Shown in pieces: positions 1-56,856 of a stretch of DNA of 64,000 bases. The stretch is from Escherichia coli. GTDB lineage: Bacteria > Pseudomonadota > Gammaproteobacteria > Enterobacterales > Enterobacteriaceae. Position 1 is the first letter of the stretch. Each line of letters opens with the position of its first letter. The stretch is taken from assembly GCF_009931435.1 (NCBI RefSeq), contig NZ_CP043414.1, one strand, 5' to 3'. The position numbers and the translations under genes are program-made. The notes under the pieces are model-generated. The model was not told where the DNA came from and searched no databases. It saw only the letters and a list, made by a program, of their open reading frames with translations.

Positions 1-1802
1 GAGTAATAGATGTAGAACGGAATCATCGGCAGATTGTTGGTGCTGTAAGAAGTCGCCGCTGCCAGCCAGGAACAACCTGCGCCCAGCTCGTTGATCCCTT
101 CTTGCAGAATCTGACCTTTCTCGTCTTCTTTATAGTAAGCAACCTGCTCGCGGTCCTGCGGGGTGTACTGCTGACCGTTCGGGCTGTAAATACCAATCTG
201 ACGGAACAGACCTTCCATACCGAAAGTACGCGCTTCGTCGGCGATGATCGGCACCAGACGATCTTTGATCGACTTGTTCTTCAGCATCACGTTCAGGGCA
301 CGAACGAAAGCGATAGTGGTAGAGATCTCTTTGCTCTGCTCTTCCAGCAGCGCGCCGAAGTCTTGCAAGCTCGGCAGCTCCAGCTTCTCGGTGAAGTTCG
401 GCTGGCGGCTTGGCAGATAACCGTGCAATTTCTGACGCTGAGCGTGCAGATAGGTATGCTCTTCAGAACCTTCCGGGAAGGTGATGTACGGCAGTTTTTC
501 GATATCAGCATCAGACACCGGCACATTGAAACGGTCGCGGATATGACGCACGCCGTCCATGTTCATTTTCTTAACCTGGTGCGCGATGTTTTTACCTTCA
601 GCTGCGTCGCCCATGCCGTAACCTTTAATGGTATGAGCAAGGATTACTGTCGCTTTGCCTTTGGTTTCCTGCGCTTTCTTGAATGCAGCGTAGATTTTCT
701 TCGGATCGTGACCACCACGGTTCAGCGCCCAGATCTGCTCGTCAGTCCAGTCTGCAACCAGAGCTGCGGTTTCCGGATATTTACCGAAGAAGTGTTCACG
801 AACATACGCACCATCTTTCGATTTGAAGGTCTGGTAATCGCCGTCAACGGTTTCGTTCATCAGCTGGATCAGTTTACCGCTGGTATCTTTACGCAGCAGT
901 TCGTCCCAACGGCTACCCCACATCACTTTGATCACGTTCCAGCCAGCACCTTCGAAGATGCCTTCCAGTTCGTTGATGATCTTGCCGTTACCGGTGACCG
1001 GGCCGTCAAGACGCTGCAGGTTACAGTTGATAACGAAGACCAGGTTATCCAGTTTTTCACGGGTAGCGATGGTGATCGCACCTTTGGATTCCGGTTCGTC
1101 CATCTCGCCGTCGCCGAGGAAGGCGTAAACGGTCTGTTTAGAAGTATCTTTCAGGCCACGGTGTTCCAGATATTTCAGGAATTTAGCCTGGTAAATAGCA
1201 CCAATCGGACCCAGACCCATAGATACGGTCGGGAACTGCCAGAATTCCGGCATCAGTTTCGGGTGCGGATAGGAAGAGAGGCCATTGCCGTGAACTTCCT
1301 GACGGAAGTTATCCAGCTGCTCTTGAGTCAGACGACCTTCCAGGAAAGCACGTGCGTAAATGCCCGGGGAGATGTGGCCCTGGAAGTAAACCAGGTCGCC
1401 GCCATCCTGCTCGTTGCGTGCACGGAAGAAGTGGTTAAAGCACACATCATAAATGGTTGCGGACGACTGGAAGGACGCCATGTGGCCGCCCAGTTCGAGG
1501 TCTTTTTTCGACGCACGCAGAACCGTCATGATGGCGTTCCAGCGGATAGCTGAACGAATACGGCGTTCCAGTTCCAGATTACCCGGATACTCCGGTTGTT
1601 CTTCAACGGGGATGGTGTTGATGTAGTTGCTGATACCGGTGCCTGCGGCTACGTTGACACCGCCTTTGCGGGCTTCAGCAAGCAGTTGGTCGATCAGATA
1701 CTGAGCACGCTCAACACCTTCTTCACGGATGACCGATTCGATCGCCTGGAGCCAGTCGCGAGTTTCGATCGGATCCACGTCATTTGGGAAACGTTCTGAC
1801 AT
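1..1802 (-). CDS. aceE: Pyruvate dehydrogenase E1 component, N-terminal ~600 codons (3' end lies beyond window start)
   Basis: Reverse-complement of 1741-1802 translates MSERFPNDVDPIETRDWLQAI; reverse-complement of 1-120 gives ...EKGQILQEGINELGAGCSWLAAATSYSTNNLPMIPFYIYY, matching remembered AceE. Not in ORF track because no stop in window. The + strand track ORF 102..1553 is its antisense shadow. Confidence 0.93.
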   Translation of the reverse strand, partial: MSERFPNDVDPIETRDWLQAIESVIREEGVERAQYLIDQLLAEARKGGVNVAAGTGISNYINTIPVEEQPEYPGNLELERRIRSAIRWNAIMTVLRASKKDLELGGHMASFQSSATIYDVCFNHFFRARNEQDGGDLVYFQGHISPGIYARAFLEGRLTQEQLDNFRQEVHGNGLSSYPHPKLMPEFWQFPTVSMGLGPIGAIYQAKFLKYLEHRGLKDTSKQTVYAFLGDGEMDEPESKGAITIATREKLDNLVFVINCNLQRLDGPVTGNGKIINELEGIFEGAGWNVIKVMWGSRWDELLRKDTSGKLIQLMNETVDGDYQTFKSKDGAYVREHFFGKYPETAALVADWTDEQIWALNRGGHDPKKIYAAFKKAQETKGKATVILAHTIKGYGMGDAAEGKNIAHQVKKMNMDGVRHIRDRFNVPVSDADIEKLPYITFPEGSEEHTYLHAQRQKLHGYLPSRQPNFTEKLELPSLQDFGALLEEQSKEISTTIAFVRALNVMLKNKSIKDRLVPIIADEARTFGMEGLFRQIGIYSPNGQQYTPQDREQVAYYKEDEKGQILQEGINELGAGCSWLAAATSYSTNNLPMIPFYIYY

Positions 1803-1962
1803 GGGTTATTCCTTATCTATCTAATAACGTTGAGTTTTCTGGAACCTGTCCCATTGAACTCTCGCCGGAAAGCTCAATAAGACAGGTTCTACGTTTAGTT
1901 GCCGCGCTTTTATATGCGCTTGATTTACAACATCTTCTGGATAATTTTTACCAGAAAAATCA

Positions 1963-2727
1963 CTAATTCTTTCGTTGTTCCAGACGACGCAGAGAACGCT
2001 CACGGCGGCTCTCTTCACGGCTTCTGTCGAGCAAAATTTCTTCGATAAAGGCCAGATGGCGATGCGATGCTTCGCGCGCTTCTTCCGGCTTACCGGCCAT
2101 AATCGCTTCGAATATGCGAGTGCGGTGACTACTCACCAGCGGCAGCATCTCGCGACGCGAATAGAGCAATTCGAAGTTCTGACGGACATTCTGAGCCAAC
2201 ATCGGCTCCATACACCTTAGCAGATGAAGCAGAACTACATTGTGGGCTGCTTCGGTGACGGCAATCTGATACTGGAGGACGGCGTTTGATTCCGCGTCCA
2301 GATCGCCAGACTGCTGCGCCAGCTCTATGGCGTGGTGGAGTTCACGGATGCGTTCCTTGTCTTCATCGGTACTACGCAGCGCGGCGTAATAGGCGGCGAT
2401 ACCTTCCAGGGCGTGTCGTGTTTCGAGCAAGTCATACTGTGATTCAGGATGGTCGGAGAGCAGCTCCACCAGCGGATCGCTGAAACTTTGCCAGAGGCTG
2501 CTCTGAACAAAAGTGCCGCCACCCTGGCGACGAAGCAACAAGCCCTTTGCTTCGAGACGTTGAATCGCCTCACGCAAGGAGGGACGGGAGACGTCGAACT
2601 GTTTCGCCAGTTCGCGTTCCGGTGGGAGTTTTTCGCCCGGGCGGAGTGTGCCTTCGAGGATCAAAAACTCCAGTTGCTGCTCAATCACATCGGAGAGTTT
2701 TGGTTGGCGGATTTTGCTGTAGGCCAT
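1963..2727 (-). CDS. pdhR: Pyruvate dehydrogenase complex repressor (GntR family), 254 aa
   Basis: Track ORF 1963..2760 trimmed to internal Met ([14 protein letters not shown]...) that matches the known 254-aa PdhR; ATG at 2725-2727. Confidence 0.93.
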
Positions 2728-2758
2728 GAGTTCCTGTCTTAAGCCACTTGCCGAAGTC

Positions 2759-2775
2759 AATTGGTCTTACCAATT
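2759..2775. promoter_or_regulatory. PdhR operator palindrome AATTGGTCTTACCAATT in pdhR promoter region
   Basis: Perfect inverted repeat ATTGGT-N3-ACCAAT read directly in sequence about 32 bp upstream of the pdhR start; matches the PdhR box consensus from memory. Confidence 0.7.
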
Positions 2776-3179
2776 TCATGTCTGTGACGCTAAAGTAACA
2801 AAGTATTCACCTCATGTCCATACAGGTTTTGATTGAAATCATGAAACTGTGCACATTTTAACAAGTTGACATATATAACGTTTCAAAGTTGTAACTATGC
2901 ACAAATGTAGACTTTACGTAGGAAAGGGATTTTTTAACGATTATTAAACTATAAAAATCCGAATTGAACCGATTCACTTACCAATTTATCGATTTTTAAT
3001 TCAAAAATAATGAATTTATATTCATTTTGTATGTTGAGGGGATTTGAGGCTGACCTTTACAAACGGTTCCTTTTTAAGCAACTCATCTTCAACCATGCAT
3101 AAAGCGGGTGCATTCGCTGCCGCATACCATTATTCTTTATCTGACGGAAGTCCTTTTGTAACAATTCAAACGTCTTTGA

Positions 3180-11611: not shown

Positions 11612-12232
11612 ATGAGGTATATAGTTGCCTTAACGGGAGGCATTGGCAGTGGCAAGAGTACCGTTGCCAATGCGTTTGCTGATCTCGGAATTAACGTCAT
11701 TGATGCCGATATTATTGCGCGTCAGGTGGTTGAACCAGGTGCACCTGCGCTACATGCAATTGCTGATCACTTTGGCGCTAACATGATTGCTGCTGATGGA
11801 ACATTGCAGCGCCGGGCCTTGCGCGAGCGGATTTTCGCCAACCCGGAAGAGAAAAACTGGCTTAACGCCCTGCTGCATCCGCTGATTCAGCAAGAGACGC
11901 AACACCAGATCCAGCAAGCATCTTCCCCCTATGTACTTTGGGTTGTGCCATTGCTGGTAGAAAACTCATTGTATAAAAAAGCGAATCGAGTGCTGGTGGT
12001 GGATGTCAGCCCAGAAACGCAACTTAAACGCACCATGCAGCGCGATGATGTCACTCGCGAGCATGTTGAACAAATTCTTGCTGCTCAGGCAACGCGCGAA
12101 GCCCGCCTTGCCGTGGCAGATGACGTCATTGATAATAACGGCGCACCGGATGCTATCGCATCGGATGTTGCCCGCCTGCACGCACACTATTTGCAGCTTG
12201 CGTCGCAGTTTGTCTCACAGGAAAAACCGTAA
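11612..12232 (+). CDS. coaE: Dephospho-CoA kinase, 206 aa
   Basis: Track ORF; [40 protein letters not shown]... (P-loop). Confidence 0.96.
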
Positions 12233-12975
12233 TGCAGACCCAGGTCCTTTTTGAACATCCACTAAATGAAAAAATGCGTACATGGCTGCGCATTGAGTTT
12301 TTGATTCAGCAACTCACCGTTAATCTACCCGTCGTTGACTACGCTGGCGCTCTGCATTTCTTCCGCAATGTCAGTGAATTACTGGATGTTTTCGAGCGCG
12401 GCGAAGTCCGTACTGAGCTGTTGAAAGAACTTGACCGCCAGCAGCGCAAACTCCAGACCTGGATTGGCGTGCCTGGCGTGGACCAGAGCCGTATTGAAGC
12501 ATTAATTCAGCAGTTAAAAGCGGCGGGGAGCGTATTAATTTCCGCGCCGCGTATCGGGCAATTTCTGCGTGAAGATCGTTTGATTGCTCTGGTGCGTCAG
12601 CGACTGAGCATCCCAGGCGGCTGTTGTAGCTTTGATTTACCTACATTGCACATTTGGCTGCATCTACCCCAGGCGCAGCGCGACAGCCAGGTAGAAACCT
12701 GGATTGCCAGTCTGAACCCGCTCACCCAGGCACTTACCATGGTGCTGGATTTAATTCGCCAGTCGGCCCCCTTCCGTAAACAAACCAGCCTGAATGGTTT
12801 TTATCAGGATAACGGTGGCGATGCCGACTTGCTGCGCCTGAATCTGTCGCTCGATTCACAGCTTTATCCGCAAATTTCCGGTCATAAGAGCCGTTTTGCC
12901 ATTCGTTTTATGCCGCTGGACAGTGAAAACGGACAGGTACCGGAACGTCTGGATTTCGAACTGGCCTGTTGCTAA
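12232..12975 (+). CDS. zapD: Cell division factor ZapD (FtsZ-associated), 247 aa
   Basis: Track ORF; [30 protein letters not shown]...; start overlaps coaE stop (TAATG). Confidence 0.95.
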
Positions 12976-12984
12976 GGAGTAAAA

Positions 12985-13179
12985 ATGTCAGAAACTATTA
13001 CGGTGAATTGCCCAACCTGCGGGAAAACGGTGGTGTGGGGTGAAATCAGCCCGTTTCGGCCATTTTGTTCCAAACGTTGTCAGCTGATCGACCTAGGAGA
13101 ATGGGCTGCTGAAGAAAAACGAATCCCCAGCAGTGGCGATCTTTCCGAAAGCGATGACTGGAGCGAAGAGCAGAAGTAA
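12985..13179 (+). CDS. yacG: DNA gyrase inhibitor YacG (zinc finger), 64 aa
   Basis: Track ORF; [44 protein letters not shown]... with CxxC...CxxC motif. Confidence 0.93.
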
Positions 13180-13202
13180 TTGGGTGTAAAAGGTGAGATG
13201 TT

Positions 13203-13306
13203 GTCGGATGCAGCGCGAACGCCTTATCCGACCTGCAAGATCTTTTATATCAATGTGTTAAAAAATTGTAGGCCTGATAAGACGCGCCAGCGTCGCATCA
13301 GGCATC
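13203..13306. repeat. BIME: two REP (repetitive extragenic palindrome) units between convergent yacG and mutT
   Basis: GTCGGATGCAGCGCGAACGCCTTATCCGAC and TGTAGGCCTGATAAGACGCGCCAGCGTCGCATCAGGCATC read in sequence; classic REP consensus. Confidence 0.85.
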
Positions 13307-13335
13307 CAGTGTAAATGTTGGATGCCTTAACCGAT

Positions 13336-13725
13336 CTACAGACACTTAAGCTTCGCAATTACCGGTTCATTGGCTGGCGGAAAATCATCTGCATTGAGGC
13401 TGGCCTGTGAAATCCACTCACCGGGTTGCCCTTCTTTACCCCACGGCTCCCCTTCCCAGCTTTCGACCAGCCAGAACCACAGTGTTATATGCCTGTCCGG
13501 GAATTCATATTCCAGTTTTTCAAATAGCGAATAATGTTGTGGGGTAATCCCGACTTCTTCCTGAAGTTCACGCACCACCGCCTGTTCCGGCGTTTCGCCC
13601 ATTTCAATTTTACCGCCAGGAAACTCCAGTTTATTCGCCATGTGCGCATCTGCGGCGCGACGGGTTATAAAGATTTCATTGTTCTCGTTGCGAATAATAC
13701 CTACCGCAATTTGCAGCTTTTTCAT
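13336..13725 (-). CDS. mutT: 8-oxo-dGTP diphosphatase (Nudix), 129 aa
   Basis: Track ORF; MKKLQIAVGIIRNENNEIFITRRAADAHMANKLEFPGGKIEMGETPEQAVVRELQEEVGI (Nudix box). Confidence 0.95.
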   Translation of the reverse strand: MKKLQIAVGIIRNENNEIFITRRAADAHMANKLEFPGGKIEMGETPEQAVVRELQEEVGITPQHYSLFEKLEYEFPDRHITLWFWLVESWEGEPWGKEGQPGEWISQASLNADDFPPANEPVIAKLKCL

Positions 13726-13783: not shown

Positions 13784-16489
13784 TTATTGCAGGCGACCGT
13801 GGCACTGCTTGTATTTTTTACCAGAACCGCACGGGCAAGGATCATTACGTCCAACTTTGCGTTCACCGGTTTGTGCCGCCAGTGCAGCTGCGGCTGCAGA
13901 GTCATCATCCTGATGGCTAAGCTGCTGCATTTGCGCTAAACGCTCGGCTTCCATACGACGCTGTTGTTCCAGCTCTTCAACCTCTTCAGGCATACGTACC
14001 TGGACTTTGCTCAGCGTGCTGATGACTTCATATTTCAGCGACTCCAGCATCGCTGCAAACATGGAGAACGATTCACGTTTGTATTCCTGCTTCGGATCTT
14101 TCTGTGCATAGCCACGCAGGTGGATACCCTGACGCAGATAATCCATCGCCGCCAGGTGCTCTTTCCACAGGGAGTCAAGCGTTTGCAGCATGACGCCTTT
14201 CTCGAAGTGACGCATCATCTCAGCGCCAACCACTTCTTCTTTACGCTGATACACTTCGATGGACTGCGCCAGAATACGCTCACGCAGCGTCTCTTCATGC
14301 AGTTCTGGCTCTTTGTCCAGCCACTCGGCAATCGGCAAATCGAGGTCGAAATCGTTCTTCAGACGTTCCTGCAGCCCCGGAATATCCCACATTTCTTCCA
14401 GCGACTGCGGCGGAATGTAGGCATCGATGGTCGCTTTGAACACATCTTCACGAATGCTGTTGATGGTATCGCTCACATCGCTGACATCCAGCAGTTCATT
14501 ACGCTGGGAGTAAATAGCGCGACGCTGATCGTTAGCCACGTCATCATATTCCAGCAGTTGCTTACGAATATCGAAGTTACGGCTTTCAACTTTACGCTGA
14601 GCGTTGGCAATCGCTTTGGTCACCCACGGGTGCTCGATGGCTTCGCCTGGTTTCATACCCAGTTTACGCATCATGCCGGAAACACGGTCAGAAGCAAAAA
14701 TACGCATCAGCGCATCTTCCATCGACAGGTAGAAACGGGAAGAACCGGCATCCCCCTGGCGCCCAGAACGACCGCGTAGCTGGTTATCGATACGACGAGA
14801 TTCGTGACGTTCTGTACCGATGATATGCAGACCACCTGCAGCCAGTACCGCATCGTGACGCACCTGCCAGTCGGCTTTGATTTTTTCAATTTGCTCTGCG
14901 GTCGGATTTTCCAGCGCGGCAACTTCTGCCTGCCAGCTACCACCGAGCACAATATCTGTACCACGACCCGCCATGTTAGTCGCGATAGTCACCGCCGCCG
15001 GATAACCCGCTTGTGCAACAATCGCTGCTTCGTTAGCGTGGAATTTGGCGTTCAGAACGTTGTGTTTGATACCGGCTTTGGTCAGCTCGTTTGACACCAA
15101 TTCCGATTTTTCGATGGAGATAGTACCCACCAGCACTGGCTGGCCCTTCGCAGTACGCTCTTTGATATCTTCGATGATCGCCTGGATTTTTTCCGCTTCA
15201 GTCATATAGACCAGATCTGGCAGATCTTTACGAATCATCGGACGGTTGGTTGGAACAACAACGGTATCCAGCTTGTAGATTGAGCTAAATTCGAAAGCTT
15301 CGGTATCAGCAGTACCGGTCATGCCCGCCAGTTTTTCATACAAACGGAAGTAGTTCTGGAAGGTGATCGACGCCAGCGTCTGGTTTTCGTTCTGGATCTG
15401 TACACCTTCTTTCGCTTCCACTGCCTGATGCAGGCCATCGGACCAGCGACGTCCCTGCATGGTACGACCGGTGTGTTCATCAACGATGATAACTTCACCA
15501 TCTTTAACGATGTAGTCTACGTCACGGGTAAACAGTGCGTGAGCACGCAGCGCCGCGGTTACGTGGTGCATCAGCATAATATTAGCCGGAGAGTACAGCG
15601 ACTCACCTTCATCCATGATGCCTTCTTTCACCAGCAGCTCTTCGATCAGCACCAGACCACGTTCGGTCAGGTTCACCTGGCGAGATTTTTCGTCCACCGA
15701 GAAGTGGCCTTCGCCCTGGAAGGTTTCGGAGTCTTCTTTTTCCTGACGGATCAGGTGCGGAATAATTTTATTCACGCGTTTATACATTTCCGAGCTGTCT
15801 TCTGCCGGGCCGGAAATGATCAGCGGTGTACGCGCTTCATCGATCAGGATGGAGTCCACTTCGTCCACCAGCGCATAGTGCAGTTTACGCTGTACACGTT
15901 CTTCAGGGCTGAACGCCATGTTATCGCGCAGGTAGTCAAAGCCGTATTCGTTGTTCGTACCGTAAGTGATGTCAGCTGCGTAAGCTTCACGCTTCGCCGG
16001 TGCTGGCATACCCGGCAGGTTGATACCGACAGTCAGGCCAAGGAATTCAAACAGCGGACGGTTGTTTTCGGCGTCACGTTGCGCCAGGTAGTCGTTGACG
16101 GTAACAACGTGTACGCCCTTACCGGTTAATGCGTTCAGGTAAGCAGGCAGCGTTGCGGTCAGGGTTTTACCTTCACCGGTACGCATTTCCGCGATGCAGC
16201 GTTCGTTAAGAACCATACCGCCGAGTAACTGAACGTCGAAGTGACGCATACCAAAGACGCGCTTACTTGCCTCACGCACCACAGCGAAAGCTTCTGGGAT
16301 CAGATTTTCCAGCACTTCGCCTTTTTCCAGACGTGCACGAAACTCTGCGGTTTTCCCTTTCAGTTCTTCGTCGGAGAGTTTTTCCATCTCCGGTTCCATG
16401 GCATTGATGATGTTGACGACTTTGCGCATCCGGCGCAGGGTGCGATCGTTACGACTACCGAAAACTTTAGTTAATAATTTGATTAGCAT
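13784..16489 (-). CDS. secA: Preprotein translocase ATPase SecA, 901 aa
   Basis: Track ORF; [43 protein letters not shown]... C-terminal zinc-binding [14 protein letters not shown]. Confidence 0.97.
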
Positions 16490-50633: not shown

Positions 50634-51315
50634 TATCACCTGGCTTTATCACCATTTGCCGATGCGTTTTAGCTTAACGGTGGAACCCGGCGAGCAGGTG
50701 GCGATCCTCGGGCCAAGCGGCGCGGGTAAAAGTACCCTGCTAAATTTGATCGCCGGTTTTCTGACGCCAGCCAGCGGTTCGCTGACTATCGATGGTATTG
50801 ATCACACCACGACGCCGCCGTCACGCCGTCCGGTATCGATGCTGTTTCAGGAGAACAACCTGTTCAGTCACCTGACGGTCGCGCAGAACATCGGGCTGGG
50901 GCTTAATCCTGGATTGAAGCTGAACGCGGCGCAGCAGGAGAAAATGCATGCTATCGCCCGCCAGATGGGGATTGATAATTTAATGGCGCGATTACCGGGC
51001 GAGCTTTCTGGCGGTCAGCGACAGCGCGTGGCGTTAGCGCGTTGTCTGGTGCGCGAACAGCCGATTTTATTGCTCGATGAACCGTTCTCTGCGCTCGATC
51101 CGGCGTTACGTCAGGAGATGCTGACGCTGGTGAGCACGAGCTGCCAGCAGCAAAAAATGACGCTATTGATGGTGTCGCACAGTGTGGAAGATGCGGCGCG
51201 GATCGCCACACGCTCGGTGGTGGTCGCTGACGGGCGCATCGCCTGGCAGGGTAAGACTGAAGAATTGTTGAGCGGTAAGGCGAGTGCTTCGGCAATATTG
51301 GGGATTACGGGTTAG
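50617..51315 (+). CDS. thiQ: Thiamine ABC transporter ATP-binding protein, 232 aa
   Basis: Track ORF 50596..51315 trimmed to [18 protein letters not shown]...; Walker [10 protein letters not shown]. Confidence 0.93.
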
Positions 51316-51322
51316 TATGCAC

Positions 51323-51410
<88 letters not shown>

Positions 51411-51427
51411 CCCGCACAGACTATCCC

Positions 51428-52192
51428 CTAAACCCCAACCACTTTCCGCAAAATATCGATATATACCGGCATCAACGGGTGGCGAATTAACACTACCAGC
51501 GCCACTACACCGACGGCAGAAATTAACGGTGCCAGCCACAACAAACGACCGCGCGACAAATAATGACTTAAACGGTCAGTCGCTTTACCACTGCGCCATA
51601 ACCGCCAGCACAGCCAGCCACCAACCCACAAAAACACCGCTGTTGCCAGCAGCAACCATTTAAACTCGCCACTCTGCATTCCGGCAGGAATATCGATCGC
51701 CGCGCCCGCCAGAATCCCCGGCAGGAAGTAAAACGGCGGCCATAACAGGCAGCCGATAATATTTGGCGTAATAAATTTCGCCACCGGGAGATCCAACATT
51801 CCCGCCACCATTGGCACCAGCGGACGCGTCGGGCCGACAAAACGACCGACCAGAATGGTAAACATGCTGTGTTGATGCAACGCATGTTCAGTTTTATCGA
51901 GTAATGCTTTGTTCTTCTTCAGAAACGACCAGCGATGCAACGGCTTTTTAAAACGCCAGCCCAGCCAGAAGGAGATCCAGTCGCCCAGCAGGCAACCGAC
52001 GATCCCTGCCAGCCAGGCGTGCCAGAAACTTAACTCGCCGCTGCCAATCAGCGCTCCCAGCCCCGCCATCAGCACCGTACCGGGTAGAATCAAACCGACC
52101 AGCGCCAGCGACTCCAGAAAGGCCACCAACACCACCGCCATCAATGAATACACGGTGGATTGGGTAATAAAGTGTTCCAGCAATGCTTGCAT
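51428..52192 (-). CDS. yabI: DedA-family inner membrane protein, 254 aa
   Basis: Track ORF; MQALLEHFITQSTVYSLMAVVLVAFLESLALVGLILPGTVLMAGLGALIG... Confidence 0.94.
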   Translation of the reverse strand: MQALLEHFITQSTVYSLMAVVLVAFLESLALVGLILPGTVLMAGLGALIGSGELSFWHAWLAGIVGCLLGDWISFWLGWRFKKPLHRWSFLKKNKALLDKTEHALHQHSMFTILVGRFVGPTRPLVPMVAGMLDLPVAKFITPNIIGCLLWPPFYFLPGILAGAAIDIPAGMQSGEFKWLLLATAVFLWVGGWLCWRLWRSGKATDRLSHYLSRGRLLWLAPLISAVGVVALVVLIRHPLMPVYIDILRKVVGV

Positions 52193-56709: not shown

Positions 56710-56712
56710 GTA

Positions 56713-56810
56713 GCCGCATCAGGTATGTAACGCCTGATGCGACGCTGACGCGTCTTATCTGGCCTACACGTTCCGATTTTGTAGGCCGGATAAGCAAAGC
56801 GCATCCGGCA
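56713..56810. repeat. REP-like palindromic units in araA-araD spacer
   Basis: GCCGCATCAGGTATGTAACGCCTGATGCGACGC...TGTAGGCCGGATAAGCAAAGCGCATCCGGCA read in sequence; REP family by consensus. Confidence 0.75.
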
Positions 56811-56813
56811 TTC

Positions 56814-56856
56814 TTTTCCCCCTCGCCCCTTTGGGGAGAGGGCCGGGGTGAGGGGA
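56814..56856. repeat. GC-rich imperfect palindrome (boxC-like) immediately upstream of araD SD
   Basis: TTTTCCCCCTCGCCCCTTTGGGGAGAGGGCCGGGGTGAGGGG; CCCCTCGCCCC pairs with GGGGTGAGGGG. Family assignment (boxC-like) is from memory and uncertain. Confidence 0.45.

Follow-up and report, generated by a model that had tools for sequence, protein, structure and literature searches.

A probable REP-IHF-REP element with a decayed third REP between the convergent yacG and mutT genes of Escherichia coli

Gene Context and Length of the Spacer

In the window, a stretch of 64,000 nucleotides of Escherichia coli DNA that runs antiparallel to the K-12 coordinates, the genes yacG and mutT converge on a short intergenic spacer. 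The yacG coding sequence (12985-13179, + strand, 64 aa, ending in ...SEEQK*) is preceded on the same strand by coaE (11612-12232) and zapD (12232-12975), and beyond mutT (13336-13725, - strand, 129 aa) lies secA (13784-16489, - strand). These limits were taken from the list of open reading frames, and yacG and mutT carry the same annotation in the matching RefSeq genomes. YacG is a gyrase inhibitor and MutT an antimutator; in the assembly collection, 1,149 indexed blocks include the exact 64-aa YacG sequence.

The spacer occupies 13180-13335 (156 bp) and is extragenic, both borders being stop codons, and its counterpart in K-12 MG1655 (NC_000913 111434-111648) measures 215 bp. A first-pass annotation of this DNA, made from the letters alone, had placed a BIME between convergent yacG and mutT and had estimated the two spacers at about 157 and 216 bp. 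The gene layout is as it described, REP units were identified in the spacer, and both lengths proved to be one base lower. Identity with the K-12 spacer, which by its own criterion would have refuted that annotation, was not observed, as length (by 59 bp) and sequence both differ. Folding of the whole spacer gave -59.6 and -55.4 kcal/mol for the two strands, with z = -4.5 and -4.3 against shuffled sequences. A full-text literature search for REPs in the yacG-mutT intergenic region returned nothing, and the K-12 RefSeq record used for the comparison has no REP features, not even at yaaX-yaaA.

REP Units, Linker and Predicted IHF Core

The spacer was scanned with blastn-short against consensus strings for Y, Z1 and Z2 REPs, which we take to represent these families, an assumption supported by the exact 36/36 match described below and by the multi-copy genomic matches. 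Two inverted REP units, as claimed by the first-pass annotation, were found. A Y-type REP, head first, lies at 13203-13236 (+ strand, GTCGGATGCAGCGCGAACGCCTTATCCGACCTGC) and matches the Y consensus in 24 of 26 core positions (E=2e-5) and in 29 of 34 over the full length; one pair of its stem is changed from C-G to T-A on both sides, a compensatory substitution. A Z2-type REP on the - strand lies at 13268-13303, where the + strand reads GTAGGCCTGATAAGACGCGCCAGCGTCGCATCAGGC, and agrees with the Z2 consensus in 36 of 36 positions (E=3.9e-16). The predicted hairpin of the Y REP has a folding energy of -16.6 (+) or -17.2 (-) kcal/mol with z about -3, and that of the Z2 REP -23.2 (+) or -22.2 (-) kcal/mol with z = -5.5 and -4.4, so that over both intact REPs the energies range from -16.6 to -23.2 kcal/mol and the z-scores, computed against shuffles, from -2.8 to -5.5. 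The REP part of the query was matched by megablast in 5,425 of 5,426 complete E. coli genomes at a median of 11 places per genome. Chance palindromes were ruled out by the consensus matches, the hairpin z-scores and the many genomic copies.

The tails of the two REPs are joined by an A/T-rich, L-type linker of 31 bp (13237-13267), assigned by its identity to other L linkers. Within it, a predicted IHF core (TATCAATGTGTTA, 13248-13260, + strand) matches the pattern WATCAANNNNTTR perfectly in a pattern scan; this pattern occurs at 6 sites in the 64-kb window against 2.07 expected. A 63-nt query extending from the Y tail across the linker into the Z2 tail was matched over its full length in 4,401 genomes (median, 4 places in each), and three of its non-orthologous matches are canonical Y-L-Z1 or Y-L-Z2 elements, located at ysaA-avtA, at yaaA-yaaX and downstream of dppA. 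The linker of the window is 57-63% identical to the canonical L linkers of these three sites and 65-77% identical to the linkers present at the same locus in K-12 (65%), B2-like E. coli and Escherichia albertii. The IHF core is kept in all L linkers here, namely those of K-12, MOD1-EC7003, E. albertii (4 copies) and E1V33 (4 copies).

On the yacG side, the segment between the stop codon and the Y REP (13180-13202) resembles both the head-side "s" linker (GTGTAAA...TGT) and the Citrobacter sequence 3' of yacG, and a direct repeat (D2) pairs 13184-13195 with 13309-13320. Alignments A2 and A3 place no Z2 REP in this flank, unlike in K-12.

The Decayed Y REP and the mutT End

The earlier count of two inverted units holds for the intact REPs, but a third, decayed Y REP at 13317-13339 (+ strand) had been overlooked. 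It follows the Z2 REP after a 13-nt "s" linker, was recognized from direct repeats D1 and D3 and from alignment A2, and reads GTTGGATGC^CTTAACCGATCTAC, where ^ marks the deletion of an 11-nt apical stem-loop (GGCGAAAACGC in K-12); 19 of the 23 remaining positions are identical to the right-hand Y REP of K-12. The order in the spacer is thus Y, the 31-bp L linker with the IHF core, inverted Z2, s linker and decayed Y. With regard to the GTAG/CTAC tetranucleotide conserved at the foot of REPs, the Z2 REP has an intact GTAG (13268-13271) and the decayed Y a CTAC (13336-13339), and the foot of the intact Y reads CTGC (13233-13236).

The decayed REP overlaps the end of mutT, as the CTA at 13336-13338, derived from the GTAG foot, is the complement of the TAG stop codon. 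In the Escherichia sequences, mutT takes its TAG stop codon from the GTAG of a REP; B2-like alleles have GTAC in place of GTAG, so that mutT runs three codons into the REP and is annotated with 132 instead of 129 aa. In addition, the heads of Z2 and of the decayed Y form, together with the s linker between them, a junction hairpin of 9-10 bp (AGGCATCCA / TGGATGCCT, 13300-13327, inverted repeat I3), which folds with -14.4 kcal/mol on the - strand and -15.1 kcal/mol on the + strand and is also present in the whole-spacer folds. In the mutT mRNA this hairpin would start 9 nt past the stop codon and be followed by the Z2 hairpin, compared with a REP hairpin from 1 nt past the stop codon in K-12 mutT; on the yacG side, the Y hairpin of the mRNA starts 24 nt past the stop codon. 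Three bases belong to both the junction hairpin and that of Z2, which puts the two in competition, and the structure adopted by the RNA in vivo is therefore uncertain.

Classification of the Element

BIME-1 elements are described as a Y and a Z1 REP joined by a long L linker, often with an IHF site, and present in single copy, and BIME-2 elements as tandem repeats in which a short S linker separates Y from Z2 and s, l or r motifs lie at the flanks; atypical BIMEs combine motifs of both classes in a chimera, and their copy number varies between strains at a given locus (PMC3333891). The units of the spacer belong to the REP family, whose members are imperfect palindromes of 30-40 nt, as they agree with the consensus (Y 29/34, Z2 36/36), are extragenic and have many dispersed copies. 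Assignment to BIME-1 was rejected on two grounds, the partner being Z2 instead of Z1 and the module being tandem at this locus in E. albertii and E1V33. A linker only 57-63% like canonical L also keeps the element from being a textbook BIME-1. Assignment to BIME-2 was likewise discarded, since the tail-to-tail linker is of the 31-bp L type and not S, in spite of the Y, the Z2 and the s-type head linker. The arrangement Y, L, Z2, s and Y remnant, together with the 2-10 REPs found at this locus across genomes, is that of an atypical BIME, and the presence of TATCAATGTGTTA in the linker between inverted REPs, with the core kept in the orthologous linkers, is that of a RIP/RIB by sequence.

Comparison with known elements points in the same direction. 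With the REP-IHF-REP elements at ysaA-avtA, at yaaX-yaaA and downstream of dppA, the spacer shares REPs inverted tail to tail, a linker of about 31-35 bp, an IHF-type core and a location at gene 3' ends. Compared with the canonical BIME-1, in which a Y REP is paired with Z1 in a single copy (PMC3333891), its partner is Z2, as at yaaX-yaaA, and, differing in this from the canonical REP-IHF-REP, the module at the same locus is repeated in tandem up to 4 times in other Escherichia. With BIME-2 elements, such as the one at thiQ-yabI (51324-51408), it shares the inverted Y and Z2 and a head-to-head Z2-s-Y junction (13268-13339), but its tail-to-tail linker is a long L with an IHF core instead of a 14-nt S, and it forms a single unit.

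Based on this evidence, the spacer is very probably a chromosomal REP-IHF-REP repeat (RIP/RIB, atypical BIME) located between the 3' ends of the convergent coaE-zapD-yacG and secM-secA-mutT transcription units. The feature is ordinary, being a known kind of element of which K-12 has one at the same locus; it has long been established that REP/BIME elements exist, carry IHF and gyrase sites and differ in copy number between strains at a given locus (PMC3333891). Mildly unusual is only how rare, and apparently how old, this particular allele is. Beyond annotation its consequence is small: an appropriate label for the spacer is a REP-IHF-REP element whose third REP has decayed, which is nothing new in kind.

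Alleles Across E. coli and Other Escherichia

Several allele types were distinguished at this locus in E. coli. The K-12 type (MG1655) has 215 bp and 4 REPs, and the B2-like type (2012C-4221, N47 and TUM1223) has 201-203 bp, 4 REP positions and the 132-aa mutT. A hybrid allele of 201 bp, in MFDS1022581, resembles the other four-REP alleles on the left (intact Z2, EEPKQ* yacG end) and the window on the right. The window type (R32_14_1F, 2013C-4282 and WL297; 156-157 bp) contains 2 intact REPs and 1 remnant, and the short type (PEA14-20, 99-3165 and CD306; 87-106 bp) consists of Z2-s-Y only, with neither L linker nor IHF core.

A 321-bp query centred on the spacer was covered to at least 80% in 2,062 of 5,426 complete E. 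coli genomes, on which basis long alleles containing the linker account for about 38% and the short 2-REP allele without the IHF linker for about 62%; an evenly spaced sample of 30 rows, with 10 K-12-type and 16 short alleles, agrees with this split. The left junction of the window (13160-13214) was found by megablast in at least 3 and the decayed-Y junction (13298-13352) in at least 5 of the 5,426 genomes, both counts being lower bounds as megablast requires a 28-nt exact word. The window-type allele (156-157 bp) was recovered from three independent complete genomes, one draft genome and one human-gut metagenome contig, and this recurrence in complete, draft and metagenome sequences indicates that it is no assembly artefact.

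A scan of species representatives returned four Escherichia records, of which none was named E. fergusonii, E. marmotae, E. ruysiae or E. whittamii, and no Salmonella. At the same locus E. albertii and Escherichia sp. E1V33 each have 10 REPs and 4 IHF cores, the genome named "E. coli" SCPM-O-B-8794 has 6 REPs and linkers with mutated IHF cores, and Escherichia sp. MOD1-EC7003 has 4 REPs and 1 IHF core. The number of REPs across genomes is therefore 2, 4, 6 or 10, and the repeat period is 115-116 bp, from which it follows that the locus is a tandem (Z2-s-Y-L)n array with freely changing copy number. The length of the spacer is a convenient marker for strain typing, with 87-106, 156 and 201-215 bp in E. 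coli and longer spacers in other Escherichia.

Relation of the Window Allele to the K-12 Allele

Read in the orientation of the window, the K-12 locus consists of yacG, Z2(-), s, Y(+), an L linker with TATCAATGAGTTA, Z2(-), s, Y(+) and mutT, that is, four REPs. The two elements of the locus share the orthologous position, the Y and Z2 types, the central Y-L-Z2 with its IHF core and a REP foot that serves as mutT stop, and they differ in content, with 4 intact REPs in 215 bp in K-12 and 2 intact and 1 decayed REP in 156 bp in the window. Measured from anchor to anchor in alignment A2, the difference amounts to 62 nt, of which 49 fall in the yacG-proximal Z2 block, 2 in the linker and 11 in the mutT-proximal Y; three of the 62 belong to the longer yacG coding sequence of K-12, which ends in EEPKQ* where that of the window ends in EEQK*. 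The spacer is thus 59 bp shorter because REPs at the ends of the array are either missing (the yacG-proximal Z2) or eroded (the mutT-proximal Y). The suggestion in the first-pass annotation that the shorter spacer reflects a different REP copy number is borne out, 2 intact REPs and 1 remnant standing here against 4 in K-12. As MFDS1022581 carries the right-hand change without the left-hand one, the two end changes are separable.

An alternative is that the window allele arose by a one-step change in copy number, with unequal recombination removing one whole BIME unit from a four-REP array like that of K-12. Whole-unit variation does exist at this locus, since the K-12 spacer (215 bp) exceeds a short allele (99 bp) by exactly 116 bp and other Escherichia hold up to 10 REPs with a period of 115-116 bp; the common 2-REP allele would have arisen in this way, by unequal recombination or slippage between tandem units of 115-116 bp. 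For the window allele, however, the difference from K-12 is 59 bp, which is no multiple of the unit, material is missing at both ends of the array with the central Y-L-Z2 kept (alignment A2), MFDS1022581 displays the right-hand change only, and the left junction is a replacement, with a match to Citrobacter over the yacG end and about 17 nt beyond it. The deletion of a single whole unit from the K-12 form was rejected on these four points and is considered improbable. Further routes that likely lead to alleles like that of the window, with separate changes at both ends, would be small deletions stimulated by the palindromes and recombination between old haplotypes.

The yacG End and an Old Haplotype

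The 3' end of yacG in the window (GAAGAGCAGAAGTAATT, encoding EEQK*) is identical in DNA to that of Citrobacter youngae and C. portucalensis, and the alignment can be continued over the following ~17 nt; Kluyvera, Enterobacter and another Citrobacter have related yacG ends of the EEQ/EDQ type. The other Escherichia sampled (E. coli, E. albertii and three other species-level genomes) read GAAGAG[C/G]CAAA[G/A]C[A/C][G/T]TGA/TAA, encoding EE(P/A)K(Q/H/P)*, followed by the extra Z2 REP. With the polarity of the change resting on Citrobacter, Kluyvera and Enterobacter as outgroups, it looks like the rare haplotype of the window keeps a yacG end of ancestral type and the common one was rewritten when a REP block came to abut the gene. 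Precise excision of a REP, restoring the ancestral end, was considered as a source of the window form and rejected, since the common haplotype does not have the ancestral flank downstream of its Z2. It follows from this lack of the ancestral flank, seen in the alignments, that the two haplotypes differ by replacement.

The divergence along the locus was also informative. Over 25 kb (1-24768) the window differs from K-12 by 2.75%, with a peak of 8-10% at 13001-13500. The 3' half of mutT (13336-13530) differs by about 6% from all other E. coli alleles, which is as far as E. albertii, and the flanks (the 5' half of mutT and zapD/yacG) are 1-3% diverged. On sequence grounds, this pattern suggests that a short segment, from the yacG 3' end into the 3' half of mutT, represents either an old haplotype block or a tract of recombination. 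In its simple form, a local import into a genome that otherwise resembles K-12 is unsupported, the whole 25 kb being 2.75% diverged. The secA-ftsZ region is about 97.2% identical to most complete E. coli genomes and reaches at least 99% identity in only 85 of them, which, together with the 2.75% divergence, points to a deep-branching or under-sampled lineage of E. coli.

Altogether, it can be proposed, with the chances for and against it about even, that the region ~13165-13530 is an old and rare haplotype with a pre-REP, Citrobacter-like yacG end, which either persisted across speciation or was re-imported by recombination, and that the locus documents how the proliferation of REPs rewrote both C-termini. 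The REP-derived stop codon of mutT and the extension of mutT by three codons in B2-like alleles would fit this proposal. Judging from the letters, REPs at this locus set the last residues of YacG and the stop codon of MutT, and thus the alleles could slightly alter the YacG and MutT proteins or their expression.

Possible Functions of the Element

REP hairpins stabilize the upstream mRNA against 3' exonucleases and attenuate transcription (PMC12306157, citing Newbury 1987 and Espeli 2001; PMC3333891), and REPs near a stop codon are reported to stall terminating ribosomes (PMC12306157, citing Liang et al. 2015). Applied to this locus, the REP hairpins, with -14 to -23 kcal/mol and situated in the 3' UTRs of both mRNAs, would block 3'-to-5' exonucleases and would attenuate read-through into the opposing gene. 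IHF binds to the L linker (PMC3333891, citing Boccard and Prentki 1993), and gyrase cleaves BIME-2 with a preference for Y REPs (PMC6379681). By analogy, the linker DNA in the spacer would bind IHF and bend, and the Y REP may be a gyrase site placed between two converging polymerases. Interaction with IHF and gyrase and targeting by insertion sequences are properties of the REP family (PMC3333891, PMC6379681, PMC1525189). In vitro, the REP-associated transposase needs GTAG for binding and cleavage (PMC3333891); as the foot of the intact Y is CTGC and not CTAC, by these rules only the Z2 REP should stay recognizable to this enzyme.

The position of the palindromes between convergent genes would also suit a bidirectional intrinsic terminator unrelated to the REP family, all the more as UUUUUU lies 6 nt beyond the Z2 hairpin on the mutT strand. 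Against this, a terminator scan returned no site in the spacer that fits its criteria, and the palindromes agree exactly with the consensus of the dispersed REPs, with further copies at many loci of every genome, making this explanation close to negligible. Within the REP element, the run of six U on the mutT-sense strand (13262-13275, CUACAAUUUUUUAAC) is absent from the K-12 allele, and it could act as a weak allele-specific terminator, though it is too distant from the stem for the scan.

Another explanation would be that the spacer is no passive repeat but the gene of a regulatory or nucleoid-associated RNA of REP origin, comparable to naRNA4 of REP325 (Rfam RF02564), which is built from the same Y/Z2 hairpin pair. 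Matches to this family were obtained at 13271-13336(-) with 44.3 bits (E=3e-6) and at 13197-13233(-) with 32 bits, and most E. coli REPs are transcribed according to PMC4550694. Nevertheless, both scores stay below the gathering score of 59.5, leaving the spacer outside the family, and sub-threshold matches are expected of any Y/Z2 pair because naRNA4 is itself a REP pair. Moreover, a scan for promoter-like consensus sites found none in the spacer, the region is highly polymorphic and partly or wholly absent from most E. coli, and its locus is not that of naRNA4. An RNA of this kind is therefore regarded as very improbable, and the REP-IHF-REP repeat remains the preferred reading of the spacer.

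Other Elements in the Window

The consensus scan with blastn-short detected three REP-bearing sites in the 64-kb window, yacG-mutT, thiQ-yabI and araA-araD. For the second, the first-pass annotation had reported a similar BIME at 51323-51410; the element (51324-51408) is real and has the same REP types, but its linker is a 14-nt S-type with no IHF core. It is located between thiQ (ending at 51315) and yabI (ending at 51428) and consists of Y(+) (51324-51357), the linker GGACAGTGCGTTTT and Z2(-) (51372-51408), being BIME-2-like and only loosely similar to the yacG-mutT element.

Beyond mutT, the segment 13740-13808 (- strand), which comprises the secA 3' end and part of the secA-mutT spacer and contains the hairpin aaaaaaggcgcagaatcctgcgcctttt, scored 77.6 bits with the Rfam model STnc40 (RF02057), whose gathering threshold is 45; STnc40 is a Salmonella sRNA family. 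The araA-araD spacer (56710-56856) contains a partial REP head (56710-56723), a Z2(+) REP (56732-56767) and, after a 13-nt linker, a Z1/Y-like REP(-) (56781-56809). A separate G-rich palindrome follows at ~56816-56856 (cccctcgcccctttggggagagggccggggtgagggg), and it resembles the boxC repeat.
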